Of a stretch of 64,000 nt of DNA, positions 12,939-46,406 are shown in pieces. The DNA is from Pseudomonas phage SM1, in sequence record NC_041877.1; one strand, written 5' to 3'. The notes beneath the pieces were generated by a model. That model was given only the letters and a program-made list of their open reading frames with translations. It ran no database searches and was not told the DNA's origin. The translations under genes were made by a program, and so were the position numbers. Each line of letters opens with the position of its first letter. Position 1 is the stretch's first letter.

Positions 12939-13304
12939 ATGAGCAACCCAGTATTCGACCGGTTCGAAAAGAAATCGAATCTCACCAAGAGCCATCGCAG
13001 GAGCAAGACCCAAGAGCGGGAAGTGGCGAAGCGAGTAGGCGGTCGTTTAACTCCCGCGTCAGGCGCCCGAGAAGTGAAAGGGGATGTGCGGGTAAAGAGA
13101 GTGGTTCGGATAGAATGCAAAACGACGAAGAACAAATCGTTCTCTGTCACGCGCGAGATGATAGAAAAACTGGAAATGGCGGCCACCTTGTCAGGGGAGA
13201 TGCCAGTGCTAGTCGTAGAGTTCAACGACGGCGCTGGGCGCAAGCAAGGTGAGTTGGTCATTTGCCCTAGCTATGTTTTGGACGATCTAGTAGAGGTAAA
13301 CTGA
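12939..13304 (+). CDS. Hjc-like PD-(D/E)xK Holliday-junction resolvase or nuclease
   Basis: Motifs E(ERE)...KGDV...RIECKTTK match the archaeal Hjc-type E / GD / (I/L)ExK arrangement; an overlapping frame-2 ORF (12641-13252) was judged less likely. Confidence 0.5.
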   Translation: MSNPVFDRFEKKSNLTKSHRRSKTQEREVAKRVGGRLTPASGAREVKGDVRVKRVVRIECKTTKNKSFSVTREMIEKLEMAATLSGEMPVLVVEFNDGAGRKQGELVICPSYVLDDLVEVN

Positions 13305-14311
13305 TGCCAACTATTCGCCGCCCTACTTCCGGAAAGCCACCAGCCACCAGAACGGAAGAGGTACTAAAGCGCCGCCGGTCGAGCCCGGAGGAAAAGCCCT
13401 CCACCCGTTTGCGCATACGAGCTGCTCGCAATTTAGTGCAGCCTGCGTCTAGCGGTTTGGGTGAGGTAGTCCGGGCACCCAACACCGATTACGTATACGG
13501 AGATGCGATCCGCCCGGCAGCACGCCAGAGCAAGCCAATGCGAACGGGCGAGTACCTTCACGTTTCGGACTTGATTCATCGGTGCGTTCGAGCCCGCGCA
13601 TTGCATGAGTTGCACCAGTTGTCGCTACCGCAGCAGCGACTTACTGTGTCGGACCTGACCACGTTCGCTCAGGGCGATGCGATACATGACGTTGGCAAAT
13701 CCCTGGCGCGCGATGGGGCGCCATACCTCACTTGGGGTAAGTGGTCGTGCAAATGTGAATACCTCAAACACGAAGACCCCTGCCTGTACGAAGAAATCGA
13801 TCAGGAAGAGGTTTGCCCGCATTGCCACACGCATGTGGATCAGTACCACGAAGTGAGTTTCTTCGACGAGGAGTATGGCGTAGTCGGCAACCCGGACCTT
13901 CTCTTCTACATTCCGCGATCCTCTGCCTACCACGTCGTCGAACTTAAATCGATTTCGCATGAACAGTGGAAGGAGCTGTCCCGCCCTAAGCCGGAGCATG
14001 TCTTGCAAGTAGTGTGGTATTGGCTACTCATGCGCCGGGCCGGAAAGCGGATGACGGATCGATGCAGCATAGTTTACTACACAAAGGGATGGCTGTTCGG
14101 TGACCAGATCAACAATAAAGAGTTTCTGGTAGAACCTGAAAAGGAAGTGAAACGTCTGGACGATATGATCGAGGACGCCAAACGCTATCGGGCACACCGT
14201 AAAGCCCTAATTGCGAAAACGTCGGCACCGCTTCCGACCCGCACTTGCGCCAGGGAGGATGTCAAGGCAGCTAAAGCCTGCCCTGTATGCGAACTCTGCT
14301 TCAGGAGCTGA
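13304..14311 (+). CDS. Cas4/RecB-like PD-(D/E)xK nuclease with Cys-rich clusters
   Basis: GNPDLLFY...HVVELKS (D ... ExK); Cys clusters CKCEYLKHEDPC...CPHCH and C-terminal CAREDVKAAKACPVCELC suggest metal or Fe-S binding. Confidence 0.5.
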   Translation: MPTIRRPTSGKPPATRTEEVLKRRRSSPEEKPSTRLRIRAARNLVQPASSGLGEVVRAPNTDYVYGDAIRPAARQSKPMRTGEYLHVSDLIHRCVRARALHELHQLSLPQQRLTVSDLTTFAQGDAIHDVGKSLARDGAPYLTWGKWSCKCEYLKHEDPCLYEEIDQEEVCPHCHTHVDQYHEVSFFDEEYGVVGNPDLLFYIPRSSAYHVVELKSISHEQWKELSRPKPEHVLQVVWYWLLMRRAGKRMTDRCSIVYYTKGWLFGDQINNKEFLVEPEKEVKRLDDMIEDAKRYRAHRKALIAKTSAPLPTRTCAREDVKAAKACPVCELCFRS

Positions 14312-24168: not shown

Positions 24169-24767
24169 CCATACGTGTGGGTCCTGGGTTCAACCTAGCT
24201 GGGCTGAATCAACCGCCTAGGGCTCACACGTATGGCGAGACCCGGTAGCACCGGGGTGATAAACGCAACACGCTACGAAACGTGAGGCTCCCATCCAATG
24301 GTGACATTGGCTAATATGGGGAGTAGGTGGCAGGGCGGAAAGCACGTTAGCGCTGACGTTAGGCACTCCAATTTTGGAATGCGTAGCACGGCCCTGGGAA
24401 GTAGGCACAATGCGCCCGCGCTCTAGTTGTAGCAACAGAGCGCCCACGCGACTAGGCACGTTTGCGTCAATCCCCTCCGAGCAGGTTAGTAGGAGGGTGA
24501 GGGCCTCTACCTCAAAACTCTGCGGATGCGCGCTGGTCGTTGCGGGGGTCGTCTAGAGGCTCTAAACTGTAGCTAGTCGGGGTAGCGTCCGACCGCCATA
24601 TTTGATCTGTTGTTACGGGGTGGCAGGTTGTTCAGGACCTGATGCTCTATGGCTACGTATCGTAGCCACGGCTGAAACACTGAACCGAGGGGCTGGAAGG
24701 GGCCCCTGCCAAACAAATGCAAGCGTTTGCACTCTACGTAGAACGGATCACGGGAGGCAAAACTTGG

Positions 24768-24839
24768 GGGGTGGTAGCTCAGGGGTAGAGCGAGCGTTTT
24801 CTAAACGCTTGGGCGTGGGTTCGAATCCCACTCACTCCA
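24768..24839 (+). tRNA. tRNA-Arg (anticodon TCT)
   Basis: Manual cloverleaf: acceptor GGGGTGG/TCACTCC, D arm GCTC-AGGGGTA-GAGC, anticodon arm AGCGT-TTTCTAA-ACGCT, T arm GTGGG-TTCGAAT-CCCAC, discriminator A; CCA not encoded. Confidence 0.8.
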
Positions 24840-24907
24840 TCTAGAAGTTTAGATGCCACGGAAGGCGTCTACCTAGAATTGCTGTAATCCCTTCAAAGGG
24901 GAAACGT

Positions 24908-24942
24908 GGCGGACGGGGGTTCGATTCCCCCCAGCTCCACCA
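24908..24942 (+). ncRNA. tmRNA (ssrA) 3'-end-like segment: T arm, acceptor 3' strand and encoded CCA
   Basis: GGCGGACGGGGGTTCGATTCCCCCCAGCTCCACCA closely resembles the 3' end of proteobacterial tmRNA (…GGACGCGGGTTCAACTCCCGCCAGCTCCACCA); no canonical tRNA 5' half could be paired upstream. Confidence 0.4.
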
Positions 24943-25266
24943 AAGACATTCTCGGCCAGCACGTTCGTTCCTAGGTGTGAGAAGGTGGCTGCGATACTGC
25001 CGGGTGGTTGCTAGGAACATCATTCGGAAAGTCCAGCTAGAGAGTGTCTCTGATGGGGCTGTTCAGGATTCGACGCCGCGCGTACTTAGCGAAGGCAGCA
25101 AGGAAAGGCGACGCACCTTGACGCGCGCAAATCGATAAACGCCAACGATACTTCGTTCGACGTTCGCCTCGCAGCCTAAACCCCTGCGGAGTGACGGGTA
25201 GCCTCCGGGCTTCCTCCCCCTGCTACGGCTAGTACCCGTAGTTGCCTTGGAACAGAAAGGGGAGGG

Positions 25267-25342
25267 CCTTCGCGTAGGCGCACTGACGGTCGGCACTCCA
25301 CCGCACGCCTGTCAGGGGGCTGTCAGTGCGCCTACGCGAAGG
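25267..25342. repeat. 21-bp perfect inverted repeat (CCTTCGCGTAGGCGCACTGAC / GTCAGTGCGCCTACGCGAAGG) with a 34-nt loop
   Basis: Exact reverse-complement arms at 25267-25287 and 25322-25342. Confidence 0.85.
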
Positions 25343-33958: not shown

Positions 33959-34260
33959 TGTACATAAAACTATCCCCGTACGTAGTGATCCCTGGCGACA
34001 GCACGGATATGGAGGTTTCCGTATCTGGCGATTTGATCGCCATCAACGGTACCGACTTCGACTTTTCGCCGTTGCCGGAGGGTGCAGAGCTGCCAGCCGT
34101 AGCTACAGGCTCGGACTACTTTGAGGGCTCTATTACCCGCGTTGATGGGGAAATCCGCTTGACCTTGAAGTTGCCTATCTCCTCGGACGCAAGCGAAGAG
34201 GCGCGATTCCCGGCGCCGATTCACGTAACGTGGAGCGGTCCAGTGGAGTTGCCGAAATGA
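33949..34260 (+). CDS. hypothetical protein (possible tail-fibre assembly or accessory protein)
   Basis: 103-aa ORF overlapping the tail-fibre 3' end. Confidence 0.4.
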   Translation: MVLMYIKLSPYVVIPGDSTDMEVSVSGDLIAINGTDFDFSPLPEGAELPAVATGSDYFEGSITRVDGEIRLTLKLPISSDASEEARFPAPIHVTWSGPVELPK

Positions 34261-34472
34261 CTATCGATTGGGGTCATTTGAAAACTCCCGAGGAACTGTT
34301 GGAGGAGAAGCGACAGCTTGTCAGGCAGCAGCGGAGAGAAGCCTACGGCATAGAATCACTCCCGCTGTATATGGAGGCCCAGTACGAAGCGGCCAAGACG
34401 GGACAACCTGCTGACCTAACCGAATGGGTAGCTAAGGTTGACGAAATCGTAGCGCGCTATCCGATGCCGTAG
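34257..34472 (+). CDS. hypothetical small protein
   Basis: ATGA overlap with the upstream gene; 71 aa. Confidence 0.4.
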   Translation: MTIDWGHLKTPEELLEEKRQLVRQQRREAYGIESLPLYMEAQYEAAKTGQPADLTEWVAKVDEIVARYPMP

Positions 34473-34486
34473 AGGTAGAAAGGAAA

Positions 34487-34590
34487 TCCTGTGTGGGCAT
34501 GGACGCTCCCCTACTAAATCCTGTGTGGGCATACGCCTTCCCCTACTGTCCAGATTCTGTGTGGGCATACGGGCTCCCCTACTACACCCC
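34487..34590 (+). repeat. three tandem 32-36-bp repeats (TCCTGTGTGGGCAT...TCCCCTACT)
   Basis: CTGTGTGGGCAT at 34489, 34521 and 34557, each followed by a CCCCTACT half; the CTGTGTGGGCAT core also occurs at 42811 and 43904. Confidence 0.8.
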
Positions 34591-34838
34591 AGTGCAGTTT
34601 TGTGCTTATTCGCCGGCGTCAGTGTTCGATTACTGGCAGCTCCCGCTGGCCGCTGGGTGGTCTCCTTCTGGTTACTGGTGTTGAGCTGGTGAACTCTTCT
34701 TGTGCTACCCCACTGACTGTCAGATTTAGCTTTCTGGTAGTAGGCCTCTGGTATTCGCTCGCTGTAGCAGCACACAATCCCATATCGCGTATAATGCAAG
34801 CGTTTGCACTAATTCAGTCACCCAGAGGGGATGCTTAG

Positions 34839-35105
34839 GTGAAACTTACAGAACAAGATATCCGCAAAGCATTGGGGCTCCCGGAACCTAAGAAAGCCAA
34901 AAAGGCTGCGCAGAGCCGACCCCATAAAGGTCCGACTATAGTAGTAGTATTAAATGTCCGCCGACCGAATTCCTGGCCGCCGGAGCGAAAACTTTATCGC
35001 ATGCCTACTATATTCGAAACGCAAGCTATCGTAGCGGCGCACCAGCAAGCCCGCGCGGAAGGTTATATAGTTCATGCGCACCTCGACACGTACATAGAGG
35101 ATTGA
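34839..35105 (+). CDS. hypothetical small basic protein
   Basis: GTG start 7 nt after the conserved TCACCCAGAGGGGA leader motif. Confidence 0.45.
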   Translation: MKLTEQDIRKALGLPEPKKAKKAAQSRPHKGPTIVVVLNVRRPNSWPPERKLYRMPTIFETQAIVAAHQQARAEGYIVHAHLDTYIED

Positions 35106-35179
35106 TCTCTGTCTATTGTCGAACTAATTAGACGGCTCCATAATGGGGCCATATACCTACAGTACCCAGAGGGGCTAGC

Positions 35180-35824
35180 ATGAAAACGAAAACTGAAATT
35201 GCATCGATGGTACGGGAAGGGTTGACGAGCCTTTCTGAGAAAGCACTCGCTGAACTTACCCGTCTTGAGAAAAATAATGGTGAAACCTTCAAACGCCTGA
35301 TGCAACGGCAGGAGAAAGTAGGCGCCGCTGAAGCTGCCGCCGAGTTGCTGCTAGCTATCGCGATTAGCGCGGCTGCGGAGTTTCGGCCAACTAATGTCCA
35401 GCTCACTGCTAAGCCTGGAAATTGCCTATCGTCAGCGTCTGCGCAAAGATCGCGTGAATCCGCCGGGCAGGTTTTAGATTTTCTTTGGCGACTCGAAAAT
35501 GAACCAACGGTAGATACCTCATACTCGCTGGTATACCTCGGTACCTGCCTGCCGGACTATTTTCTAGGTTTTGGCGGGCATGTGTTCGCCGTTCCGCTCT
35601 CGGCCCGGCCACGCAAGCGCGACGTTAAAACCGGGCTGCTATCGAGTATTAACGTCGAAGAAATTTACGACGAGAGTGGCGAACCCGTCGGTGAAAGTGC
35701 GTACCTAGGTCTGGCTCAAGCAGTAGAAGAACTGTTTGCTGGAGAAAACATGATGGAGTCTTGGATGCGCTCTATTGTGGACCTGAGCGAGAGCTACGCT
35801 TATTTCGGTGTTGTCCGGGTTTGA
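35180..35824 (+). CDS. hypothetical protein
   Basis: ATG preceded by TACCCAGAGGGG leader motif. Confidence 0.5.
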   Translation: MKTKTEIASMVREGLTSLSEKALAELTRLEKNNGETFKRLMQRQEKVGAAEAAAELLLAIAISAAAEFRPTNVQLTAKPGNCLSSASAQRSRESAGQVLDFLWRLENEPTVDTSYSLVYLGTCLPDYFLGFGGHVFAVPLSARPRKRDVKTGLLSSINVEEIYDESGEPVGESAYLGLAQAVEELFAGENMMESWMRSIVDLSESYAYFGVVRV

Positions 35825-35893
35825 TCATTATACTCTAACTCGCCAGTTCGACGCTGACTGTTATTCAATATTCGTTACCCAGAGGGAACAATC

Positions 35894-36469
35894 ATGGAAA
35901 AGCTTAAAATTTCTGATCTAGAGTCCGGCGATATTACTCTGAAGATTCTGGCTTCCGTCGATACCGAACATAGGGATTATCTTCGTGTTCTTCATCGGCT
36001 CGGTTTGTTCCGGTTACGTACGGAGGCCGACTCTAGTTGTAGTTTCGAGGACTTGTGTGGCGACTCTTATAACCCTGAAGTAGTCACTGATATTGACGCG
36101 GATGAGCTTAAAAAACAGAAAGAAAAATTCCGTAGGGAAGTAAAGGCCTCTGGAGTCTGGGGCGTGATTTTGGAGGCTCGGCCCAGCTCCTCTGTTCCCT
36201 GGGAGGATGCTGAGCACGTTGATTCCATATGGGGTTTTGTTGGTACTAGCTTCCAGGGATCAGGCTATGATAGGGATATGTTGGCGCTAGCCTATGAGTG
36301 GTTGGCCCAACATAGCACCGACGAAATCCATAATCTGTATGTCCAGTGCCTGTATAGCCAAGCGGTTCTCGCTGAACTTTCGGATCGTCTACCGGTTGAG
36401 GAGTGCGCCATACTGAAGGATATACAAGCGCGTCTTTCGGTTGCCGTGCGCAAGCTAACTAATCCGTAA
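35894..36469 (+). CDS. hypothetical protein
   Basis: ATG preceded by TACCCAGAGGGAA leader motif. Confidence 0.5.
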   Translation: MEKLKISDLESGDITLKILASVDTEHRDYLRVLHRLGLFRLRTEADSSCSFEDLCGDSYNPEVVTDIDADELKKQKEKFRREVKASGVWGVILEARPSSSVPWEDAEHVDSIWGFVGTSFQGSGYDRDMLALAYEWLAQHSTDEIHNLYVQCLYSQAVLAELSDRLPVEECAILKDIQARLSVAVRKLTNP

Positions 36470-36524
36470 CTGGCCGGCGTGCAAACGCTTGCACGCCTAC
36501 GTGTCCTGAAAAAGGGGTTTAGTA

Positions 36525-37043
36525 ATGAGCAAATTTATTATTGAGTGGGGACGTTTGGACGAGACTCTACCGACTTCTGTACCCATGGCTACTGCCATGT
36601 TTGAAGTAGAGTCGCTCTCTGGGGCTTTCCGAATGGTGGGAAGCCTCGCCCATACGCTCACCACTGATCGGGTGGAAGATAGCGCCGTTTTGAGTAATAT
36701 CTACGGATGCGTAGCGCATCGGTTCAATTCTGCTCTGAAGGCGAACGGGCGTGCAGTCTTCTGGGGCGCGAGAGATGACTGGTTCATCTCCATAACCAAC
36801 CGGGACAAACATCCTCTGGATGGAGGTTACCGCTCAGTAGCGCAGACGAAAGTAAAGGCCAAGTGGATGGCCACGCTTAGCCTTCGTCGAGAATTCCCGC
36901 TGAAGGAACAAACGCGCAAACTCGTGCAGCAGCTAATAGCAGAGCATGAGCGTTGTCATTCCTATTGCGAGGGCGACTGCCGTATGGGGATCGCTATTCG
37001 CGATGCGGAGATAGCTCTGAACGCCATGGAGAGTCCGCTGTGA
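36525..37043 (+). CDS. hypothetical protein
   Basis: 172-aa ORF after an intergenic palindrome copy (36480-36493). Confidence 0.5.
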   Translation: MSKFIIEWGRLDETLPTSVPMATAMFEVESLSGAFRMVGSLAHTLTTDRVEDSAVLSNIYGCVAHRFNSALKANGRAVFWGARDDWFISITNRDKHPLDGGYRSVAQTKVKAKWMATLSLRREFPLKEQTRKLVQQLIAEHERCHSYCEGDCRMGIAIRDAEIALNAMESPL

Positions 37044-37249
37044 TCACTATCCTGGGCCCTCTGGCGGTAATGGTAGTCACGGTATGCACGCCAGAGAATG
37101 GATGTGCTACGGCTACCAGTAAGGTAGTTCCTCTCGTGGAGTGCGAGGCAAGAAAAGAGATGGTTCTATCCGGCGCAGACGGGCGGCGCCCGCTAAGGTA
37201 TGATAAGTCTGTAAGTATTGAATGCCGGAGAGTCCAGCATGGCAACTAA
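37040..37249 (+). CDS. hypothetical small protein with a hydrophobic N-terminus
   Basis: GTG overlapping the upstream stop; VITILGPLAVMVVTV hydrophobic start. Confidence 0.35.
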   Translation: MITILGPLAVMVVTVCTPENGCATATSKVVPLVECEARKEMVLSGADGRRPLRYDKSVSIECRRVQHGN

Positions 37250-37448
37250 ACTCTATATCGTCGAGGTGCGGGATTCCGATGGGAATCTTGTATTGTCCCC
37301 GCAGTCTCCCCCGCCATTCGCTACGGCTAGCGAGCGCCAATTGCAGGAATACCACGACGAGGTTACCGGAGACTACATGGCGGAATTTAGGGATGTTCTG
37401 GGATGGTACAGAACGCAAGGTTGGCACGTACGGCGGCGGCCATGGTAG
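37239..37448 (+). CDS. hypothetical small protein
   Basis: ATG 37239; 69 aa. Confidence 0.4.
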   Translation: MATKLYIVEVRDSDGNLVLSPQSPPPFATASERQLQEYHDEVTGDYMAEFRDVLGWYRTQGWHVRRRPW

Positions 37449-37563
37449 GGGGAAAGCATGACCGAGGGTATCCTAGCACTATGGCGACTTTCAAAGCTGG
37501 CGGCCATGGTATTTGCGTTTTGTTTTCTATGGCGTCTTAACCTTCACCTAACGGATTCACCGA

Positions 37564-37878
37564 ATGAACCTACTGTTCGACACGCCGCAGTTTCGGCTGG
37601 TACCGGCGGCGCAGAAAATGAATTACGCGAACGTATCGAACCTGCTGGAGGTAAGCTACAACGGTAAGGAGGTTTACCATCCGATTGAGGTAAATACTCT
37701 AATTTTCCACTTGATGGACACGCTCGGTGTAGCCGTCGAGAGCCGAGTTACTCTCTATCTGGACAAAGCCTCTGTAGGTTGGGTATTTGGAATATGCGTG
37801 GATGAGGAGGCGATATTCGACCTTTGGCGCTATTCTGAAACAGAGTTCCCGCCATGGTTGGAGATTGAGCCTCTGTAG
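37564..37878 (+). CDS. hypothetical protein
   Basis: 104-aa ORF with a globular-looking composition; the overlapping 37458-37667 ORF was judged less likely. Confidence 0.4.
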   Translation: MNLLFDTPQFRLVPAAQKMNYANVSNLLEVSYNGKEVYHPIEVNTLIFHLMDTLGVAVESRVTLYLDKASVGWVFGICVDEEAIFDLWRYSETEFPPWLEIEPL

Positions 37879-37942
37879 GCGCCCAAGCACGCAAGGCTGC
37901 GTTATACTTCGTTTATCGCATACTACCCATGAGGGGGTTACC

Positions 37943-38698
37943 ATGAGCTTTGCAGGCAAGACCGTTAATTTCACTTGGCAGGACGCTTCCGAAAACGAAC
38001 GCGGGGTTTCCGGCTGGGTTATGTCCACCATGCCGCACTTCGATCCTGTACAGGGTATGGGCGCCGCGCATGACATCCTTGAGCACTTCACCCCGCGTGC
38101 AGGCAACGCCGGCGAAGCCGAGGCGTTCGGCGCTATCGTGTGGATTCGCCTCGACGGCGGGTATTGGGCGGCATTCGCCGATAACCCGCATACCAGCCGC
38201 ATGAGCGTAGAGGAGCACGCTAAGGGTCTGGGCCAGGAGTTCGGTGACTTCCTGCACTACAGCGATTACGAAATGGCCGAGCCTCTGGACTTCGAGCGGG
38301 TAGAAGAGCCTGACGACGAAGACGGCACCCGCTCCATTCTGCGCCTTATCTGCGCCCACGCGGCACGGCACTGTCGCAACGAACATGGCATGGACCCCAG
38401 CAAACGCCATTGCATCAAGCTGATGTACCAGTGGCTATGCAGCGGCTATGCCAAGGTGCAGGAGTTCTACGGCAACAACGCGCCGAACATGGCCGCGCTC
38501 TTCTGGGAGCTGGAGAAGGCTATCGACGACAATATCAAGTATGTGGAGCACTACTCCGGTGATCGTATCGAGGTTCGAATCGACCCCGACTACACCTGGG
38601 CGCTGACCACCATCACGGGCATCGACGAGAATGGCGACATCTGGGAGGATGGCGTCTTGTGGGGAAACGGGGAACCCGCCTACGCCGATGCCGACTAA
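37943..38698 (+). CDS. hypothetical protein
   Basis: ATG preceded by the TACCCATGAGGGGG leader-motif variant. Confidence 0.5.
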   Translation: MSFAGKTVNFTWQDASENERGVSGWVMSTMPHFDPVQGMGAAHDILEHFTPRAGNAGEAEAFGAIVWIRLDGGYWAAFADNPHTSRMSVEEHAKGLGQEFGDFLHYSDYEMAEPLDFERVEEPDDEDGTRSILRLICAHAARHCRNEHGMDPSKRHCIKLMYQWLCSGYAKVQEFYGNNAPNMAALFWELEKAIDDNIKYVEHYSGDRIEVRIDPDYTWALTTITGIDENGDIWEDGVLWGNGEPAYADAD

Positions 38699-38773
38699 TC
38701 ACTGTACGGCCCAAACCTCGTATATTTTGCTATAGTCACTTCGTATTCGTCAGTCACCCAGAGGGGATAAACA

Positions 38774-39292
38774 ATGCATAGGCCTATTCTTTCCGCAGAC
38801 GGCACCGTAGAGCTTAGCTTTATGCCGTCTTGTGTTAGCTATCGAGACTCCGCCCGTCCGGATGTACGACAGGTATTGGATGGCATTCTGTCCATGATTG
38901 GGGTCTACACGCTCACCGAGTTCGCGTCAGTGAAGCGCCTTAAAAAAGCCGAGCCTGTAGAGTACGATTACATATGGTCCAGACACGGTAGTCGTCTCTC
39001 GCCCTCGTGGCAAGAGTTCGAAGCGGCCAGGAAGCCCTACGTTGGTGCATACCTGATCAGTGGAAACTTTCGCGAAATCTCGTGCGCTTTTCGGTTCATC
39101 ACTTCTGATCGCACGTTGGCTTCCAAGTTCATCCGGGCGATGGAGCGCAATCCCGGTTGGCCAGACGCTTGCCGCTGGAGCGAAGAATTTGCACTGAAGT
39201 ATCAGGTATTCGTCGATAACTATGAGCGCTGGAAAGAATTTCGTACGGCGCGCAACCAGGGGGTGCCCAGTGAACAACAAAAACTCCATTAA
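38774..39292 (+). CDS. hypothetical protein
   Basis: ATG preceded by TCACCCAGAGGGGATAAACA leader motif. Confidence 0.5.
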   Translation: MHRPILSADGTVELSFMPSCVSYRDSARPDVRQVLDGILSMIGVYTLTEFASVKRLKKAEPVEYDYIWSRHGSRLSPSWQEFEAARKPYVGAYLISGNFREISCAFRFITSDRTLASKFIRAMERNPGWPDACRWSEEFALKYQVFVDNYERWKEFRTARNQGVPSEQQKLH

Positions 39293-39623
39293 AGCCGTAC
39301 CAGTCCGCGTATTCACCCGTGAACGTCCGTGCGACAAGGTGGACCTGTATCTGTGCTTTACCAATGGCGGCGGGGCCTATGTTCCTCGTGCCGTTGTAGA
39401 GGCCAGGGGTGAAATAGGCTTGAATGCAATAAAGTACCTGAAGAAGAACGGCCTCGCCGTGCAATTCGAGTCGGGCTCGGTGGACTACTGGCAGCTTACC
39501 CCGCCCGGTGAACAATGGTTGCAAGAAGGTCTTGCCCGGTTTCTGGAGTTACACCCGGACGCGGCTGCGCGTATACCCAAGCGCCAGGCTTCTGCTCGAA
39601 CGCGCGTGCGCCGGGCAAAGTAG
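39268..39623 (+). CDS. hypothetical protein
   Basis: GTG start overlapping the upstream gene; 118 aa. Confidence 0.4.
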
Positions 39624-39724
39624 TAAAATTCTATTAAACCCCGAAAGTTTAGAAAGTTTGCGATTTTTTGCGATAAATTCCGGACGTGCAAGCGTTTGCA
39701 CGCCTCACATCAATAGGTAAATTT

Positions 39725-40057
39725 ATGTCGAAACGTACTGAGAACGGACGCGCAGTAATTCGCGTCTGCGGGCTGGAGCCCGTAGTGCCCTTAGATATCG
39801 TGGGTAAGCTGGCGCGGGTTAGTCCGTCTGACATCATCCGCATTGCCGCAGCTATTCAGGTATTGAGCGCGGTAACCGGGATCGATAAGGCCACTCTGCT
39901 CGATTGGGATAGCTTGCCTACGGCGCAGGCTGACCCCGAACGCGCACGCGCTACGGAGGCTTTGTTTTCCGGTATCCTGGCGAATATCGACTATGAGGAG
40001 GAGTGTGCGAAAGCGTTGCAATTGCGCCGCCGGTCGAGGAAACGCCATGCCGAGTAA
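39725..40057 (+). CDS. hypothetical protein
   Basis: ATG 39725 chosen over the palindrome-embedded ATG at 39686. Confidence 0.45.
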   Translation: MSKRTENGRAVIRVCGLEPVVPLDIVGKLARVSPSDIIRIAAAIQVLSAVTGIDKATLLDWDSLPTAQADPERARATEALFSGILANIDYEEECAKALQLRRRSRKRHAE

Positions 40058-40129
40058 AACCGAGCTTTTGGTTAGCGCCGCTCTATTGGTATTGGTTTTC
40101 TCCCTTTTTTACGTACTGGGGCCAGTTCA

Positions 40130-40423
40130 ATGACTGAGATGAAGTATGTAATGTTCAGGCTCACCCACAAGGAATCTGGAATCTATAAGCTAGTCCCTGT
40201 CATATTCCCGACCTTGCTAGTTCACGCCTCGGTGGCTCATGCCAATCTGGCCTTACTGATGCAGGATTTTCCGAGGTTCGATGTGTGGGTAGATAGTGCA
40301 GGGTTCGTGAACCTCGAAGATGCCCACTGCTTCGGTGAGTCTGAGACGCTGAATAAGAAAGCGGATGGAGAGCGCGATTCTCTGGTAATCAGCACGTACA
40401 ACTATACGCACGGAATGGTCTGA
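40130..40423 (+). CDS. hypothetical protein
   Basis: 97-aa ORF. Confidence 0.4.
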   Translation: MTEMKYVMFRLTHKESGIYKLVPVIFPTLLVHASVAHANLALLMQDFPRFDVWVDSAGFVNLEDAHCFGESETLNKKADGERDSLVISTYNYTHGMV

Positions 40424-40498
40424 TCGCTGTATCTTGCGCCCCTTAGCCGGGGCGTTATAATTTCGCTATATCCATCTACTACCCATGAGGGGGTTATC

Positions 40499-40882
40499 GT
40501 GACTCGTGTAGCCGCAAGTATCGAAAAGTTCGATTTGGTTAAAAATGTGGACCGCGCTCTGGCCAAGCGGATTCGTGCCATCTGGAGAGGCGATCTTGAC
40601 GAAGTGCGCAAACACTTCCCGGAGACCGATACTCTGATCGAGGAATATTACACCCAGCCCGGGGCCCGTGAATTACGCCGTGTCATCATTGACCGCCTGT
40701 TGGACACCTGTGGCGTAGAGTACCTGGGCCAATACAAGCGCTCTGGAGAGCACGTTCACTATTGCAACGCGGGTGATCCGTACGTTACTACGGTCATGTT
40801 CTTCGATCAGAGGTTGGTTATTGGCTGTTGGGGAGACCTTGTAGAGCGTAACCTAATCCGCGAACCGGCCACCGCTTACTAA
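40499..40882 (+). CDS. hypothetical protein
   Basis: GTG preceded by the TACCCATGAGGGGG leader-motif variant. Confidence 0.45.
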   Translation: MTRVAASIEKFDLVKNVDRALAKRIRAIWRGDLDEVRKHFPETDTLIEEYYTQPGARELRRVIIDRLLDTCGVEYLGQYKRSGEHVHYCNAGDPYVTTVMFFDQRLVIGCWGDLVERNLIREPATAY

Positions 40883-40920
40883 TGCAAGCGCTTGCACCTA
40901 CTTAGAAAGGGCGAAACATC

Positions 40921-41604
40921 ATGATCAAAAATCGAGCCTACTACTACGGATTCGGGTATGAGAACGCCGGTGCGTTGCATGCTCTCGGTTGCCTGGAGCC
41001 GGAAGGTTACCCCGTGACCTTCGGAAATTTGGCTATTGCCATGAATGGTTCATGGCAGGCTAAGGCTTTCAAAGAAGGCTTTGATGCCAAGCGCGATCTG
41101 CTCCGTGACACTAAAGAGTATGCGGCGGATATGGATCGTTTCAACCGCTCTACGATCAAGAGCAGGGTAATCTCTGACCGTATCGGGAAAATGGCAAAGG
41201 GTTATATCGCTTGTGCATTGTGGGCGTCCGACGGTATACATCCTGAAACTGAAAAATTTCTCGATTCGCTGGAAGGCTTCGAGGCTGCTCCCTCATTCCT
41301 CGCCCACGCCGAGCGTACCTGCTCTGCCTTCTATGCGCAGAACATGACCGATTGCGCCGCCTTTGTCGATTTGTACCCATCGCGGGTCAGTAGCGAGTCT
41401 GACCCGTGGGAAGGCCTGGGCCACGATCTCTGGCTCACTCGCAACGGGCACGGCGCCGGTTTCTGGGATCGCGGCATGGGTAGGGTTGGTGAGCGTCTTT
41501 CTGGTAAATGCGGGCACGGTAAAGCCTTCGCCCCGCTATATCCCTACCTCACTGACGAGATTCTCGTAGACGTGGATAAGCCGTATCACAGTAAAGTCGA
41601 TTGA
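40921..41604 (+). CDS. hypothetical protein
   Basis: 227-aa ORF after palindrome copy 40883-40896. Confidence 0.5.
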   Translation: MIKNRAYYYGFGYENAGALHALGCLEPEGYPVTFGNLAIAMNGSWQAKAFKEGFDAKRDLLRDTKEYAADMDRFNRSTIKSRVISDRIGKMAKGYIACALWASDGIHPETEKFLDSLEGFEAAPSFLAHAERTCSAFYAQNMTDCAAFVDLYPSRVSSESDPWEGLGHDLWLTRNGHGAGFWDRGMGRVGERLSGKCGHGKAFAPLYPYLTDEILVDVDKPYHSKVD

Positions 41605-41674
41605 TCGCTGTAAGTAGCGCGGACGACTTGCCGACGCTACTATGCACCTACTAATCACCCAGAGGGGATAAACA

Positions 41675-42265
41675 ATGGAAATGCGTACAAAGAGTTTTAT
41701 GAATGTGTGGTCCTTCAGAGGTCGTCGGATCGAGTCCCTGAAGTTCTACACCCGCGAGGCTGGCGTTTTGGCTACTTCTGACACCGGCTATCTCCCGCAC
41801 TCGGCGGATCGATACTGCTACGAGGCGGCCACTGAAGTTAAACAGATTGCCGAGGTACGGCCAGCACGCGCCGAGCTATCCAATATCGCCCGTGGCGGTC
41901 ACTTCGTAATAGGCGGTACTCTTTATTTGGATTTGTCCGAGTTCGATTACTGGAGTATCGAAGAGCAGCAGGTAAGCTCTGGGGCTGGTTACACTCTGCA
42001 CGCTCGTGGAATAGTTTTGCAGTATGACGCTTCGGGCAGCTCCCTGGTCGGGGCTAACGAGTTTCTCAATATTCAGCGGTTCGTTTATGACCGCAGTAAA
42101 ACCGAGGAACGCGCATCCGAAAACAGGGCCAAGCTGGAAGCTGTGGCAGAGTGGTATAACCGCAATGTAGCGGACCATAGTAACCGGTACCTAAGCTTGG
42201 CCGGGGCTGAACGCCTTTTGAGCAAATTCCGGGAACTGAAGGCTATAGTAGAGGGGGAGCTATGA
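41675..42265 (+). CDS. hypothetical protein
   Basis: ATG preceded by TCACCCAGAGGGGATAAACA leader motif. Confidence 0.5.
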   Translation: MEMRTKSFMNVWSFRGRRIESLKFYTREAGVLATSDTGYLPHSADRYCYEAATEVKQIAEVRPARAELSNIARGGHFVIGGTLYLDLSEFDYWSIEEQQVSSGAGYTLHARGIVLQYDASGSSLVGANEFLNIQRFVYDRSKTEERASENRAKLEAVAEWYNRNVADHSNRYLSLAGAERLLSKFRELKAIVEGEL

Positions 42266-42388
42266 TGAGTCCCGCACCGTTCGAAGCCTTGCGCAATTTC
42301 GATGAGGCGCACGTCGCATTGTTGGGGAGAATCAAGCGAGGTAAGAAACGCTAACCCTGTATAGGCAATTGCAAGCGCTTGCACAGCA

Positions 42389-42417
42389 GCCCCGGGTCAC
42401 TCCGGGGCTTTTCTTTT
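42389..42417 (+). terminator. rho-independent terminator
   Basis: GCCCCGG-GTCACT-CCGGGGC stem followed by TTTTCTTTT; preceded by a palindrome copy (42370-42383). Confidence 0.7.
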
Positions 42418-42429
42418 CCGGGCCGAACA

Positions 42430-43100
42430 TTCGGGGGCCCGAACGCTATACAGGAAATACCTATATAGACCTTCTATATGTACTTCCCCCCTTTGAGCCC
42501 TCTTATCCCCTATCCCTCCTATACAGTCCAGCCAGGGCGATCCGGGGGCCCTCCTACCTAACTTTCGGGGCCAGAACAAAAAGAAATACATATATAGGAG
42601 AGAATCCATATAGGACTATATAGATACATAGAGAGAGTATAGAGGAAGTAGATAGCTTGTGTTCTACCTGTGGAATGTTTGCAGCAAAAATTTTGTGAAC
42701 AGGCAAGGGGTGGCCTCTGCTGTAGCTATCTGTGTCCTTCTGCTGGCTGGCGTGACTTGTGTCCTAGCTAACGTGAGCTACTGACTGCTGGATGGTAGCT
42801 ATCGTGGATTCTGTGTGGGCATGTGATATGTACTACTGTTCTCTCTGCTGTCCTATATAGGGTACTTGCTGGTGGTATGGCTCCCTGGTGATGGCTGGTG
42901 ATAACTGGTGCTGCCCGCTGATCGCTGCTGGTGACTGGTGGTCTCTGCTGCTGGTGGCTGCTGGTGAACCCGGGCCGCTGGGTGGAGCCGCTCCTACTGA
43001 TGCTCTCCTATATAGGGCGTGTGGCAATTACGACCTGGGCTTCTGGTAGGTATTGCACTCCTATATAGGGAGACCATAATGGGGCCTACGAAATACACAG
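42430..43100. other. ~670-bp ORF-free repeat-dense hub (candidate early promoter cluster or origin)
   Basis: Contains the TATATAGG family motifs, CTGTGTGGGCAT, eight CTGGTG repeats including two exact GCTGGTGG, and three TCCTATATAGGG copies; no credible ORF on either strand. Confidence 0.6.
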
Positions 43101-43121
43101 TCACCCAGGAGGGGACACATC

Positions 43122-43367
43122 ATGCCGAGCACCTATCCCAATCTTGTCTTTTGCACCCTGCCGCAGGAGATCGACGGCGACCTGTATGTAGAAGGGTTCG
43201 AAGCTTCCAATGGAATGATCGATGTAGGTAGCTTCATCCTTTCCCAGGGAATGATCCAAGGTCTGGCCCCGCTCTGCGTTACTACCAGCGTCGAGGCTGG
43301 GCTTTCGTTCCTCGATAGCTTGGAACCGCCGACCGAATTGGATATCGCTTACCTCGACAGCCTCTAA
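43122..43367 (+). CDS. hypothetical acidic small protein
   Basis: ATG preceded by TCACCCAGGAGGGGA leader motif. Confidence 0.45.
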   Translation: MPSTYPNLVFCTLPQEIDGDLYVEGFEASNGMIDVGSFILSQGMIQGLAPLCVTTSVEAGLSFLDSLEPPTELDIAYLDSL

Positions 43368-43400
43368 TGCAAGCGCTTGCACCTATATAGGAGAATCATT

Positions 43401-43853
43401 ATGTACGCCATCTATGTACACGAACGCGCAGAGAACGGCGGCGCCGGAAAGCTGGTAGACCTGATAGTGCGCGAAAGCATGTCAGAGGCGCACCGCGCCG
43501 CCTGCCGCCAGTATGGTTTTAAAAAGATGGTTTTCAAGCCGGGCGATCTACCCTTGTCCACCATCGCGGAGCTATACGAAAATCTCGACACCCGTGAGCG
43601 CTTTTTCGAACGCGTCAATACTCTGGAGCTGCGCCAGGGCGACATCGTTGTCCATACCCTCGGCTTGATCCACCTAGGCGAGCGGCTCATCAGTGAAGCT
43701 CATAACGACGTGAAGGATGATGGCGGATGGTGCGAGTATGGGCCGGACGACGAGCTGCTCTGGGCGTGGCCTTCCGGCATCTCTACCTCTACCCGGAAAT
43801 ACAATATCCAAGGTAACGGCCTCGCCAACTGGATTCGGTTCAAACGTACTTAG
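43401..43853 (+). CDS. hypothetical protein
   Basis: ATG after GGAGAATCATT; the start embedded in the palindrome/TATATAGG motif was rejected. Confidence 0.45.
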   Translation: MYAIYVHERAENGGAGKLVDLIVRESMSEAHRAACRQYGFKKMVFKPGDLPLSTIAELYENLDTRERFFERVNTLELRQGDIVVHTLGLIHLGERLISEAHNDVKDDGGWCEYGPDDELLWAWPSGISTSTRKYNIQGNGLANWIRFKRT

Positions 43854-44145
43854 TGGATCGGGGCCCGGTGTGGCCCCATCTCTGTTATTACTCCCTGGTG
43901 ATCCTGTGTGGGCATGTGTATTTAATTACTGGTGACTGGTGAAGCTTCCGGCCCAGTGATCGCTGGTGAAGTGGAAACCCCTGTAGCACGCCATTGACGT
44001 GCTTCACCGCTGGTCGAGGGGTACAGACGTGCTACAACTTTTGGCACGGTCCGTGCTACGCCCGCGCGCACCCGTTTCCTCCTTCTGGTAGGGAAAGCAG
44101 GTGCAAGCGCTTGCCTTGTGTTATGAAATTATTTTGAAAATATGC

Positions 44146-44174
44146 TTGACCTGGCTCTGTGAGGTACATATTAT
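44146..44174 (+). promoter_or_regulatory. sigma70-like promoter (TTGACC-17-TATTAT) with an AT-rich UP-like element
   Basis: -35 TTGACC at 44146-44151, 17-nt spacer, -10 TATTAT at 44169-44174; upstream AT-rich TTATGAAATTATTTTGAAAATATG. Confidence 0.55.
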
Positions 44175-44227
44175 GACTTCCAAGCCAGGCAATACCGCCT
44201 AGGCAAGTCACCCAGAGGGGACGTACC

Positions 44228-44794
44228 ATGCAAGCTCTCATTGAAAAGAACATCGCCGAAACCGCCGCCCAAGTTACTGAAGCTCCGGCCAAGGCCAAAA
44301 AAGCCACTGCCGCCAAGCCCGCAGCCAAGCCCGTCAAGAAAGCGGCAGCCAAGCCCAAGGCAAAAGCTCCGGCCAAAGCAAAAACCGCAGCCAGCAAAGG
44401 CGCAGCCAAGCCCCGCGCGGCCAAGGCGAAAGCAGCCACTACCGCAGCTTTCTTTATCCATCCGCAGTTCCGTCCGGTAGCCGGGGCCCGTCTCGCAGCT
44501 CATACCGAGGCCGTTCTTCAGTATTTCGGTCTGTACGGCGAAGGCGTCAAAGTTTCCCGCCGGGAGCTGGCGCGCGTAATGGGCGATACCGCAGTCGGTT
44601 ACCACCTTAACAAGACTCGCAATTTCGAGGAGTCCGACAAGATGATCAGCCTGAGCAAAGTAGGCCGTATTGCCTTCGGGGCCCGTCAGGGTAACGTACG
44701 CGACGAAGAACGCGATGCGTTCCTGGCCATCTTCCGGACCGGCAAGGCGAACGAGATTGCCCATATCCCGCAAGACTTGATCCTGGCCGCGTAA
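44228..44794 (+). CDS. histone-H1/AlgP-like DNA-binding protein (AKP-repeat N-terminus plus globular C-terminal domain)
   Basis: ATG preceded by TCACCCAGAGGGGA leader motif; N-terminus AKAKKATAAKPAAKPVKKAAAKPKAKAPAKAKTAASKGAAKPRAAKAKA. Confidence 0.55.
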   Translation: MQALIEKNIAETAAQVTEAPAKAKKATAAKPAAKPVKKAAAKPKAKAPAKAKTAASKGAAKPRAAKAKAATTAAFFIHPQFRPVAGARLAAHTEAVLQYFGLYGEGVKVSRRELARVMGDTAVGYHLNKTRNFEESDKMISLSKVGRIAFGARQGNVRDEERDAFLAIFRTGKANEIAHIPQDLILAA

Positions 44795-44848
44795 CCTCGA
44801 ACGGGGCCCATAGCGGGCCCCACTACCTAACCCTATAGGAGATATCCC

Positions 44849-45073
44849 ATGGCACGTAAACCTCTCGTAGTGAGCGCCGTAGCTCGCATCTTCCGCGTCC
44901 AGGCTAATGAGACCGTCATAGTTGAGGAACTGGCCTATAGCGATCTTACAGCAGAGCAACGCGCCTACTTCGAAGGCCTGAAAGAGCGTGATCGCCTGGA
45001 CAGCATTCGGGCAAAGGCTGAGGCCTACGCGCTAGCTAACCCGCAGCCCCGCGCTATGTTCCTTATCGACTAA
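44849..45073 (+). CDS. hypothetical small protein
   Basis: RBS AGGAGATATCCC then ATG; 74 aa. Confidence 0.4.
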   Translation: MARKPLVVSAVARIFRVQANETVIVEELAYSDLTAEQRAYFEGLKERDRLDSIRAKAEAYALANPQPRAMFLID

Positions 45074-45086
45074 AGGAGTCAATACG

Positions 45087-45434
45087 ATGTCCGCACCTAT
45101 CGTTATTCACCATCCGGTACACTCCAGCCACCCGAACGGGGGAGCTGAACAAGTAACCCATATCTATGAGCCGTTGGACCTCTCCGACAAGGGGGCCATT
45201 GAACATTTCGCGGCCACCTACAATCGCGCATTGCGACACGCTCAAGGCGAAGGCGTGCATTCCGTAGATATCTATCTGGGGGAACGTACTCAGCCTAAGA
45301 TCATTGACGGCGAAATAATGATCCAAGGGGGATGGCTGGAGCATACGATTGTCGTTCGGTATACCGAGGGCAAGTCGTTCACCATCGGCGCCATTCAACG
45401 CAAGCCGAATGATGCGAGCGAATTCCATAGCTAG
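45087..45434 (+). CDS. hypothetical protein
   Basis: RBS AAGGAG then ATG; 115 aa. Confidence 0.45.
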   Translation: MSAPIVIHHPVHSSHPNGGAEQVTHIYEPLDLSDKGAIEHFAATYNRALRHAQGEGVHSVDIYLGERTQPKIIDGEIMIQGGWLEHTIVVRYTEGKSFTIGAIQRKPNDASEFHS

Positions 45435-45680
45435 CGCAAGCGCTTGCACGGGGGCTCCAATCGGGGCCCTTCTTTATGCACCCCCTATGCCATATAGGAA
45501 TAATCCACCATAGAAATTCTCTATCCAAGAACGGTCGTGGCGCAGCACAGTTTTTATACCCATGGGATTTTGAATACCCCCTATTCACTTTTTTCGTCAA
45601 CGGGCAGACCACCAGACCACCACGCGAAGTTGGCAGACAGCATCATGACTCTCTCATGATTTGGGCAGCTCTCATCGCAA

Positions 45681-45733
45681 CAGGGTCATGTCCAGGGTCA
45701 TGCTCTTTTCATGATCAGGGTCATGATCAGGGT
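45681..45733 (+). repeat. CAGGGTCATG direct repeats (three full copies plus one partial) inside a 520-bp ORF-free region
   Basis: CAGGGTCATG at 45681, 45693 and 45716; CAGGGT at 45728. Confidence 0.7.
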
Positions 45734-45959
45734 TTCTGAACTAATGCGAAAAATCGCTTCAGGGTATGGGAAATTTTCAAATTCAATTAGTGTCCAAGCC
45801 AGCTTTCCAGCAAGCTTCCATCGCGATATAGGCAGGACACTATCATGAGTCACTGTAGGATGATGGCGCATCAGTTTCAGGATAGAATCCAAAAAACGCA
45901 CGGTTTAACATTCTCATGAGCTGCGGGCGCATAAGAGCCCCGAAATAGGTTAAGGAACC

Positions 45960-46406
45960 ATGTCTCTACCCATAGTCCACCAGACCCAGCCTCTACCCGA
46001 TGCCTGCGCATGCACCTGCCTAGCAATGCTATCAGGGCAGCCGGCGGCCACTATCATTGACAGCTACCATGCGGGGTACCGCGACGGAAGCATGTCCGTA
46101 TTCGAGATCATGGATAAGCTGGGCATCTGCGCAGAGTACGCGGAAGGCCATACGCTGTACCCAGGAAATCTCTACCTTCTATACGTAGCGTCGCTGAATT
46201 TGCGAGGAGTTCTCCATCAGGTAATTGCCGATATGCGCGAGGGGAGTTTGGTCATATTCGATCCGAACAAGGGCCGAGCAGGTAAGAGTTACTACTATGT
46301 AGGCCACGAGCAGCTTCCGCCTGACCCTTTAGCGGTGCCGCTCACAGACTGGGGAGTGGATGCCAAAATAGTCGTAGCGCCTGCGCTGCAATTTTCAATA
46401 CGTTAA
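45960..46406 (+). CDS. hypothetical protein (Cys-containing, possibly peptidase-like)
   Basis: RBS AAGGAACC then ATG; 148 aa; N-terminal DACACTCLAM. Confidence 0.45.
   Translation: MSLPIVHQTQPLPDACACTCLAMLSGQPAATIIDSYHAGYRDGSMSVFEIMDKLGICAEYAEGHTLYPGNLYLLYVASLNLRGVLHQVIADMREGSLVIFDPNKGRAGKSYYYVGHEQLPPDPLAVPLTDWGVDAKIVVAPALQFSIR

Follow-up and report, generated by a model that had tools for sequence, protein, structure and literature searches.

A hairpin containing the Shine-Dalgarno sequence precedes the start codons of nine unrelated genes in Pseudomonas phage SM1

In Pseudomonas phage SM1 (NC_041877.1), of which a 64,000-nt stretch was analysed here (the window), one short leader motif recurs immediately before the start codons of nine small genes, and the question raised by this locus is why genes whose products show no similarity to one another should share such a leader. 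A first-pass annotation had pointed out that the GAGGGG core of the motif can act as a Shine-Dalgarno (SD) sequence, whereas the conserved ACCCA upstream of it is not explained by pairing to ribosomal RNA (rRNA), and had suggested a translational operator. We find that ACCCA forms the 5′ arm of a hairpin, with the gene's own SD as the 3′ arm. The motif is a strand-specific RNA hairpin which includes the SD and is linked in position to the start codon. The best reading, to which we give a probability of roughly one half, is that this hairpin would be a structured translational operator tying the nine genes into one post-transcriptional regulon.

The motif has the consensus (G/A)TCACCCAGAGGGGA(T/C). 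Exact copies of CACCCAGAGGGGA are found on the + strand at positions 34819, 38755, 41656 and 44209, forms with two mismatches at 35163 and 35876, the variant TACCCATGAGGGGG at 37924 and 40480, and the variant TCACCCAGGAGGGG at 43101, and a longer common form, TCACCCAGAGGGGATAAACAATG, is shared by the copies at 38754 and 41655. The nine copies, including the variants and the longer form, are thus present as first described, all on the coding (+) strand and spanning 34.8-44.2 kb. With at most two mismatches allowed, CACCCAGAGGGGA gave 8 matches on both strands of the window, versus 1.79 expected, a number reached by none of 100 shuffles; the looser core ACCCANNGGG gave 11 matches, versus 1.8 expected. 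Written as RNA, with dashes separating the structural parts (lower stem, bulged A, upper stem, loop, upper stem, lower stem), the copies and the genes that follow them are listed below (aa, amino acids; bits, score in the covariance model described further on).

Hairpin 1, 34817-34832, + strand: GUC-A-CCC-AGA-GGG-GAU, 6 nt before GTG 34839 (gene 34839-35105, 88 aa)
Hairpin 2, 35161-35176, + strand: AGU-A-CCC-AGA-GGG-GCU, 3 nt before ATG 35180 (gene 35180-35824, 214 aa)
Hairpin 3, 35874-35889, + strand: GUU-A-CCC-AGA-GGG-AAC, 4 nt before ATG 35894 (gene 35894-36469, 191 aa)
Hairpin 4, 37922-37938, + strand: ACU-A-CCC-AUGA-GGG-GGU, 4 nt before ATG 37943 (gene 37943-38698, 251 aa); 11.6 bits
Hairpin 5, 38753-38768, + strand: GUC-A-CCC-AGA-GGG-GAU, 5 nt before ATG 38774 (gene 38774-39292, 172 aa); 32.1 bits
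Hairpin 6, 40478-40494, + strand: ACU-A-CCC-AUGA-GGG-GGU, 4 nt before GTG 40499 (gene 40499-40882, 127 aa); 13 bits
Hairpin 7, 41654-41669, + strand: AUC-A-CCC-AGA-GGG-GAU, 5 nt before ATG 41675 (gene 41675-42265, 196 aa)
Hairpin 8, 43100-43116, + strand: GUC-A-CCC-AGGA-GGG-GAC, 5 nt before ATG 43122 (gene 43122-43367, 81 aa); 20.4 bits, outside the training set
Hairpin 9, 44207-44222, + strand: GUC-A-CCC-AGA-GGG-GAC, 5 nt before ATG 44228 (gene 44228-44794, 188 aa)

The 3′ end of the hairpin lies 3-6 nt from the start codon in all nine copies, so that the placement before small-gene starts holds throughout, while the distance of about 7-10 nt given at first has to be corrected. The open reading frames (ORFs) behind the copies comprise 81-251 codons, and the marked start is the first possible start of the ORF in eight of the nine cases; the exception is 37943, where the longest ORF begins at TTG 37787 and would overlap the upstream gene by 92 nt. 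For a count over a whole genome we used the 127 annotated genes of phage PA_L9, a complete-genome relative that is >98% identical. The motif stands before only nine of them, all in one block of ~10 kb, whereas the remaining 118 genes have ordinary AAGGAG or GGAG sites and lack the motif. This rules out that it is simply the genome-wide SD consensus, the outcome that the first-pass annotation had named as fatal to its proposal. Paralogous genes carrying their leaders along are ruled out as well by the absence of similarity among the nine proteins. Therefore, the motif is a start-associated element limited to nine unrelated genes.

A covariance model built from six of the copies, with three held out, recovered the latter at 20.4 (hairpin 8), 13.0 (hairpin 6) and 11.6 bits (hairpin 4). 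When scanned with this model, the window yielded the same nine sites; PA_L9 contained only two further matches on either strand, at 11.6-13 bits, and all other matches in the window and PA_L9 stayed at 11.6-13.3 bits and did not adjoin start codons. Motif-like matches at 49075 and 50063 (minus strand) and at 26875 (+ strand) were low-scoring and not beside starts, and were judged to be due to chance. No match above 15 bits was obtained in 407 kb of other, unrelated phage DNA. Exact 14-mers of the motif gave single scattered matches in 87 stretches of IMG/VR, with no clustered copies in the 84 of these 87 that were listed. Nothing was found in a scan seeded with the protein of the neighbouring gene g37943, and a scan seeded with a tail-fibre-region protein retrieved only unrelated phages, in which the model had no match above 15 bits. 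Moreover, Rfam gave 0 matches at E<=5 over positions 34000-46000.

The structure is a stem-loop of 16-17 nt, 5′-N1N2N3-A(bulged)-CCC-A(N)GA-GGG-N3′N2′N1′-3′, made up of three variable pairs, a bulged A and three C-G pairs closed by a loop that reads AGA in six copies, AUGA in two and AGGA in one. In RNA folding of the leaders, eight of the nine minimum-free-energy structures contain this common hairpin, and hairpin 6 takes a near-equivalent ACCC/GGGU fold. The lower stem occurs as GUC/GAU (hairpins 1 and 5), AGU/GCU (hairpin 2, fully compensated relative to hairpin 1), GUU/AAC (hairpin 3), ACU/GGU (hairpins 4 and 6), AUC/GAU (hairpin 7) and GUC/GAC (hairpins 8 and 9). All 54 pair cells of the nine-site alignment form standard pairs, and two-sided changes, seven cells in total, affect all three lower pairs. 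Only 1 of 500 column shuffles reached the observed pairing or covariation score; when the 3′ partner was slid by 1-3 columns, pairing fell to 37-65% and nearly all double changes were lost. The same picture of pairing and covariation was obtained with an ungapped six-site alignment. Furthermore, five copies have G.U pairs, which means that pairing is possible only in the + sense, mRNA strand.

Inside the hairpin, eleven core positions are invariant at 2.0 bits (A, CCC, A, GA, GGG), including the unpaired bulge A and the loop A and GA, whereas the flanks beyond the covarying positions are near random (0.03-0.8 bits). The 10 nt upstream carry 0.1-0.65 bits, with no conserved boxA-like sequence. 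This contrast between core and flanks argues for selection and not for recent duplication: the hairpin is under selection, its unpaired A residues included.

One half of the SD (GAGG, in several copies extended to GAGGGGAU) falls in the loop and the other in the stem. The 3′ end of 16S rRNA is GAUCACCUCCUUA, and in our alignment to that end GAGGGGAU matches the extended SD, GAGGUGAU, at 7/8 positions. The opposite arm, (A/G)UCACCC, is itself similar to the anti-SD end of 16S rRNA, and its pairing partner is the GGG in the SD of the gene. The earlier statement that ACCCA is not explained by rRNA pairing therefore stands, but the sequence does have an explanation, namely pairing within the same RNA. 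As isolated structures the hairpins are weak (-2.9 to -6.6 kcal/mol), and the calculated SD:anti-SD duplexes of the nine genes are stronger than average (mean -9.3 versus -7.9 kcal/mol for the other genes). A weak hairpin next to an above-average SD:anti-SD complementarity would suit an operator that needs a partner. In the two copies with an AUGA loop, we also noted that the AUG of the loop begins a five-codon mini-ORF, AUG AGG GGG UUA CCA/UCG UGA (37929-37946 and 40485-40502), whose UGA overlaps the true start codon (AUGA or GUGA); these two copies are near-duplicates, and the mini-ORF may be incidental.

Six of the nine hairpin genes follow an intergenic cassette of near-constant length, with stop-to-start gaps of 64-75 nt. 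Each opens with a box resembling TGATCNCTGTA, at the upstream stop or adjoining it; a -10-like hexamer (TATAAT, TATACT, TATAGT, TACTAT or CATAAT) follows after 23-25 nt, then the hairpin after a further 10-21 nt, and the start codon 3-6 nt beyond that. Searching the window for CTGTM-N23-25-YAYWVT retrieves the six cassettes and nothing else; since the pattern was derived from the cassettes themselves, this shows exclusivity and not independent significance. The cassettes are as follows, numbered after their hairpins.

Cassette 1, 34762-34795, + strand: CTGTA-N23-TATAAT, promoter-like and bipartite
Cassette 2, 35109-35144, + strand: CTGTC-N25-CATAAT; the box begins at the upstream gene's stop codon (TGATCTCTGTC, 35103-35113)
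Cassette 4, 37873-37908, + strand: CTGTA-N25-TATACT; the box overlaps the end of the upstream ORF 37564-37878, beginning 5 nt before the ORF end
Cassette 5, 38702-38736, + strand: CTGTA-N24-TATAGT; the box begins at the upstream stop (TAATCACTGTA, 38696-38706)
Cassette 6, 40427-40461, + strand: CTGTA-N24-TATAAT; the box begins at the upstream stop (TGATCGCTGTA, 40421-40431)
Cassette 7, 41608-41643, + strand: CTGTA-N25-TACTAT; the box begins at the upstream stop (TGATCGCTGTA, 41602-41612)

The TATAAT of cassette 1 (34790) is joined by a palindrome, TGCAAGCGTTTGCA (34795), ahead of hairpin 1. Near cassette 4, the TGA within GATTGAGCCTCTGTA (37866-37868) is not the stop codon of ORF 37564-37878. 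Within cassette 6, a G+C hairpin (40436-40455) separates the CTGTA box from the TATAAT. The three other hairpin genes have no upstream box; among them, the gene of hairpin 9, which encodes a basic, lysine/alanine/proline-rich protein, lies behind a consensus sigma-70-like promoter, TTGACC-17-TATTAT (44146-44174). Over all copies, the distance from the hairpin to the nearest -10-like hexamer varies between 10 and 39 nt, whereas a fixed spacing of 3-6 nt separates it from the start codon, which links the element to translation and not to transcription. The proposed role at translation initiation is thus still the best reading, while a protein acting on the hairpin in trans would be a further step. 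The variable hexamer distance also makes a 5′-terminal mRNA stabiliser unlikely. A DNA hairpin promoter of the N4 type was dropped, given that no virion or phage RNA polymerase was found and sigma-70-like elements lie upstream. Pfam recognised neither an RNA polymerase nor a sigma factor in the PA_L9 proteome, so the promoters are presumably read by the host polymerase. A non-coding gap of 366 bp separates the last tail-fibre-region genes from the first hairpin gene, and, judging from gene position and the small genes of no assigned function, the hairpin block is probably the early region.

Both the 34-46 kb part of the window and the remainder matched ten Pseudomonas aeruginosa phage records, including UF_RH6, PA_L9, vB_PaeS_FBPa45, PaMx31 and the BHU series, at 98-99% identity. 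All ten phages belong to the genus Samunavirus, and the window comes from a P. aeruginosa siphophage of this genus (SM1/PaMx31-like, genomes of ~94 kb) with all genes on the + strand. The BHU 'partial genome' records (OL473897, OL622073, OL343755) consist of back-to-back coding sequences with 100-nt gaps, amounting to 900 N in 10.6 kb; being devoid of intergenic DNA, they are unsuitable for regulatory comparisons. In the PA_L9 record (PP869205) the cut falls inside hairpin 4 and ~100 bp are repeated at both ends. In the five genomes that include intergenic DNA, the nine hairpins are unchanged except for two differences in UF_RH6, an A-to-G change that keeps the pairing (U-A to U.G) and one extra G in a G run. 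By comparison, the 5-nt spacer after hairpin 9 exists in four versions among the strains, the one in PA_L9 being equal to the spacer of hairpin 8. In PaMx31 and the BHU phages, whose genomes are otherwise 98% identical, gene 37943-38698 is present as an allele with only 53% protein identity. In PaMx31 the divergence extends from just after the ATG to ~55 nt before the stop codon (window 37950-38645), and the cassettes flanking the swapped allele, hairpins included, are 93-100% identical, with the hairpin 4 leader unchanged. UF_RH6 also has an extra ~875 bp (12694-13570 in the compared sequence) between hairpin genes 8 and 9, corresponding to window 43886-43938, with two small genes (orf50, orf49) and no hairpin copy.

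The nearest phages outside Samunavirus are Agrobacterium phage JP1 and some Rhodobacter and Rhizobium phages, with DNA-polymerase identity of only 34-37% (36% for JP1). In Pseudomonas phage Astolliot and in a Vibrio phage, the genes homologous to 35894-36469 are preceded by ordinary leaders, which indicates that the hairpin belongs to the regulatory system of this phage and not to particular genes. No equivalent of the CCC/GGG hairpin was found in JP1. That phage has a start-associated leader of its own, GGAGCAACGACCAATG, without evident hairpin, before ~8 genes (e.g. 40428, 43759, 69852, 81407, 85769), usually directly behind a palindrome, and GTATATAC motifs clustered at 83-87 kb. The wider phage lineage may be characterised by conserved promoter-leader cassettes.

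Taken as a structured translational operator, the hairpin would mark the nine genes as a probable co-regulated set. Being marginal on its own, it would be opened by ribosomes, so that the genes would be translated when their mRNAs first appear; a trans-acting factor, either a protein of the host or one of the phage that has escaped recognition and may be among the nine products, could then read the invariant bulged A and loop A/GA, clamp the hairpin over the SD and shut the set off jointly. Such a factor is favoured because the stem is marginal and because the bulged and loop A residues are invariant though needed neither for rRNA pairing nor for the stem. This preference is slight: a hairpin that tunes initiation in cis, without a partner, would fit nearly as well and forms the minority variant of the same explanation. 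The more specific version, in which the nine hairpins would be operators for a phage-encoded RNA-binding protein, possibly one of the nine products, that jointly switches off host-takeover genes at translation, is put forward tentatively and we regard it as rather doubtful.

A number of observations weigh against an operator, or against the protein partner that it might require. The two AUGA-loop copies score 11.6-13 bits, which is background level, and they can also fold as ACCC/GGGU with a 6-nt loop. The covariation comes from three pairs at nine sites in one genome, among them three near-duplicate pairs of sites, and the nine-site alignment was fitted to the covariance model. All available genomes are >98% identical apart from the one swapped allele, so that the conservation seen is conservation among close relatives. 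For the SD region, the predicted probability of being unpaired is 0.42, within the range of other genes (mean 0.51); with hairpins this weak and an ordinary SD accessibility, sequestration by structure alone should repress little. The search for a phage RNA-binding protein that had been recommended at the outset was carried out and gave no recognisable domain: Pfam recognised none in the 125 PA_L9 proteins covered by the domain search, and Pfam, PHROGs and NCBIfam gave nothing relevant for the nine hairpin-linked proteins. For the 88-aa product of the first hairpin gene (34839-35105), which is the most basic candidate, no PDB sequence match was obtained, and a single-sequence AlphaFold model was of low confidence (predicted local distance difference test, pLDDT, 60.8), too poor for a fold search. 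Finally, no literature on gene regulation, and no transcript, ribosome or protein data, were found for the Samunavirus group.

The strongest competitor of an operator is a repeated promoter and ribosome-binding site (RBS) cassette, copied and homogenised by recombination among the intergenic regions of a variable block in the manner of the PeSL elements discussed below, in which case the leader sequence would be maintained through descent and gene conversion, would be a good RBS combined with a recombination joint and would have no dedicated regulator. The common 64-75-nt stop-to-start layout of the six cassettes, their bipartite pattern found nowhere else in the window, the 53%-identical PaMx31 allele sitting between cassettes of 93-100% identity, the three pairs of copies with near-identical leaders, the hairpin 8 spacer behind hairpin 9 in PA_L9 and the different leader used by JP1 all speak for it. 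Outside the conserved blocks, however, the cassettes are essentially unalignable, with a mean column identity of 47%; together with the 2.0-bit core this means that the copies are old and that the core has been kept by selection. Moreover, descent predicts neither compensatory changes in the stem nor invariant unpaired A residues that are dispensable for rRNA pairing, and the three hairpin genes without an upstream box show that hairpin and cassette are separable. We therefore consider this explanation unlikely. A site acting at the DNA level is improbable. The motif is an imperfect inverted repeat (GTCACCC-AGA-GGGGAC) downstream of promoter-like sequences, and Arc-like and helix-turn-helix proteins are encoded in the same region, so that a phage or host protein might bind it as an operator or roadblock, like the stoperators of cluster A mycobacteriophages; but its half-sites are unequal owing to the extra A, and five of the nine copies are complementary only through G.U, which amounts to mismatches in duplex-DNA symmetry. 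The outer positions covary instead of being conserved, the opposite of what base-specific protein-DNA contacts would give, and the copies have one orientation and a spacing fixed to the start codon, not to the -10-like hexamers.

Cleavage or processing by an endoribonuclease at the RBS, as done by T4 RegB on early messages, could be suspected from the location in the SD of probably early genes and from an A-rich stretch, GAGGGGAUAAACA, which follows the SD on its 3′ side in several copies and is reminiscent of the RegB consensus GGAGRAYARAA. Only one of the nine copies contains GGAG, though, and RegB needs an unpaired GGA, secondary structure being protective against it (PMC3014915); apart from replication and repair enzymes, neither a RegB-like protein nor any other RNase family was detected in the PA_L9 proteome, and we hold such a site to be very improbable. 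Least credence is given to a merely preferred strong SD variant, with the hairpin as a coincidence of a G-rich SD beside a C-rich stretch: the 7/8 match to the extended SD and the stronger-than-average SD:anti-SD duplexes are in its favour, yet the invariant ACCCA is left unexplained by rRNA pairing, the motif is absent from the other 118 genes, the lower stem covaries, and the 407 kb of other phage DNA held no match above 15 bits.

How does such an operator compare with known systems? By our comparison, the known element nearest in kind is the start-associated sequence (SAS) found in cluster K mycobacteriophages, the present motif being an analogue of it and not a member. The SAS is a 13-bp element present in ~7-19 copies, in one orientation, 3-7 bp before starts (PMC3203893, PMC12699233). 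It has been known since 2011 (Pope et al., PMC3203893) and has been suggested to act in translation initiation, and a survey of 188 genomes in 2025 (PMC12699233) lists its function as untested. Both elements are short asymmetric repeats (13 bp in the SAS; a 13-16-nt core in nine copies here) that keep one orientation, precede unrelated genes and are confined to the non-structural region of the genome. Like the SAS, our motif stands close to starts (3-6 nt, + strand, 34.8-44.2 kb) of small genes of no assigned function, and combines a GAGG SD core with an invariant ACCCA that is not complementary to the anti-SD in our alignment to the 16S end. The sequences differ: SAS members fit the consensus GGGATAGGAGCCC with <=2 mismatches, whereas ours is the one given above, and the complementary GGG...CCC ends of the SAS (GGGAUAGGAGCCC) appear here as CCC...GGG, with the order of the arms reversed. 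The SD would lie in a 7-nt loop in the SAS; here the stem has 6 bp and a bulge, with the SD in its loop and 3′ arm and with the pairing backed by covariation. In addition, the 17-bp inverted repeats of the extended SAS are absent, six copies having an upstream CTGTA-N24-(-10) element instead; the hosts are Actinobacteria in one case and Pseudomonas in the other, and the phage lineages and sequences are unrelated. What appears to be new here is a structured start-associated element in Samunavirus, with a putative function at translation.

The MS2 and PP7 operators are small hairpins over the RBS with a bulged A and unpaired loop A residues, marginal alone and repressive once protein-bound. Our element has in common with them a hairpin with a bulged A overlapping the RBS, and the proposed clamping over the SD would follow the same logic as their coat-protein operators. 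RNA-phage genomes, in contrast, have one operator each, bound by the capsid protein, whereas there are nine here in a double-stranded DNA phage, with unrelated stem and loop sequences and no levivirus coat-protein domain or homologue among the 125 PA_L9 proteins. Lambda boxB has a 5-bp stem and a 5-nt loop, is accompanied by boxA, occurs as one site per operon and is recognised by a small phage protein. A short G+C stem of the GCCC...GGGC type, a purine-rich loop and a location in early leader RNA are likenesses to it; the 3-4-nt loop, the bulged A, the lack of a conserved upstream boxA and the nine copies at start codons set the present hairpin apart from nut sites. Nor does it conform to RsmA/CsrA sites, defined by GGA in a hairpin loop (A(N)GGA), as an AGGA loop exists only in hairpin 8 and the other eight have AGA or AUGA.

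With T4 RegA and RegB, in whose manner the operator had originally been imagined to work, the likeness is that many unrelated messages share a short RBS element, which allows coordinated shut-off. RegA sites, however, are A+U-rich and unstructured and include the AUG, and RegB cuts unpaired GGAG followed by an A-rich tract (PMC3014915). The site considered here is G+C-rich and structured, GGAG is present in hairpin 8 only, with its G residues in the stem, and neither RegA nor RegB was found among the 125 proteins; that part of the proposal is therefore not supported. PeSL elements of T4-type phages consist of a sigma-70 promoter and a terminator stem-loop (Arbiol et al. 2010, PMC2839356). They resemble our cassettes in being repeated, small, intergenic and promoter-like and in flanking small genes of no assigned function in a variable block, here with one allele swap bounded by cassettes. 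In our cassettes, by contrast, the stem-loop comes after the promoter-like part, includes the SD and abuts the start codon; it lacks a U tract and is not terminator-like; only one consensus promoter was scored near a hairpin, and that hairpin has no upstream box.

The element marks nine proteins of no assigned function as one module, which aids prioritisation in a genus used in therapy collections. It also offers a second, independent and genetically easy start-associated system, in the well-studied host P. aeruginosa, with a clear covarying structure and only nine targets. If the hairpins were operators for such a phage-encoded RNA-binding protein, this would be a RegA-like regulon with an MS2-like structured operator in a double-stranded DNA Pseudomonas phage, and a tractable model for the role of the mycobacteriophage start-associated sequences. 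Should a binding protein exist, it would represent a new type of phage translational regulator, and the hairpin together with its protein could be of use in Pseudomonas synthetic biology as a compact orthogonal switch.

Several other features were noticed in the course of the analysis. ARAGORN gave a tRNA-Arg(TCT) at 24768-24839 in the window (24689-25270 region), and, around it, two mutually overlapping transfer-messenger RNA ('tmRNA') calls that also overlap the tRNA and are probably false positives. The 366-bp gap before the first hairpin gene contains three tandem copies of a 32-bp unit, AAATCCTGTGTGGGCATACGCTCCCCTACT, at 34484-34584, which could be origin iterons, a packaging or terminal sequence, or regulator sites. 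Also present in the window, at 24 sites (e.g. 433, 6542, 18747, 22283, 34795, 36480, 39687, 40883, 43368, 59661), is a 14-bp palindrome, TGCAA[G/A]CG[T/C]TTGCA; with <=3 mismatches there are 53 strand-matches, versus ~6 expected. Its centre is GCGT, ACGC or GCGC, implying a symmetric half-site TGCAAR. The sites occur in intergenic and coding DNA, often directly after stop codons or -10-like hexamers, and within the hairpin block they precede genes without a hairpin. JP1 has 32 copies of TTGCAAAC(G/A)TTTGCAA, placed similarly. The palindrome has the look of an operator, or of a site linked to promoters, that a dimeric DNA-binding protein would use throughout the lineage. Among the early-region proteins of PA_L9, there is one match each to the SutA RNA-polymerase-binding domain (E=1.3e-4), to an Arc-like DNA-binding domain (E=1.3e-15) and to HTH_23/HTH_28; the proteins concerned might redirect the host RNA polymerase or bind the palindrome. 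A strong terminator-like hairpin (9-bp stem and T run) is located at 42388-42409, directly after the palindrome copy at 42370.

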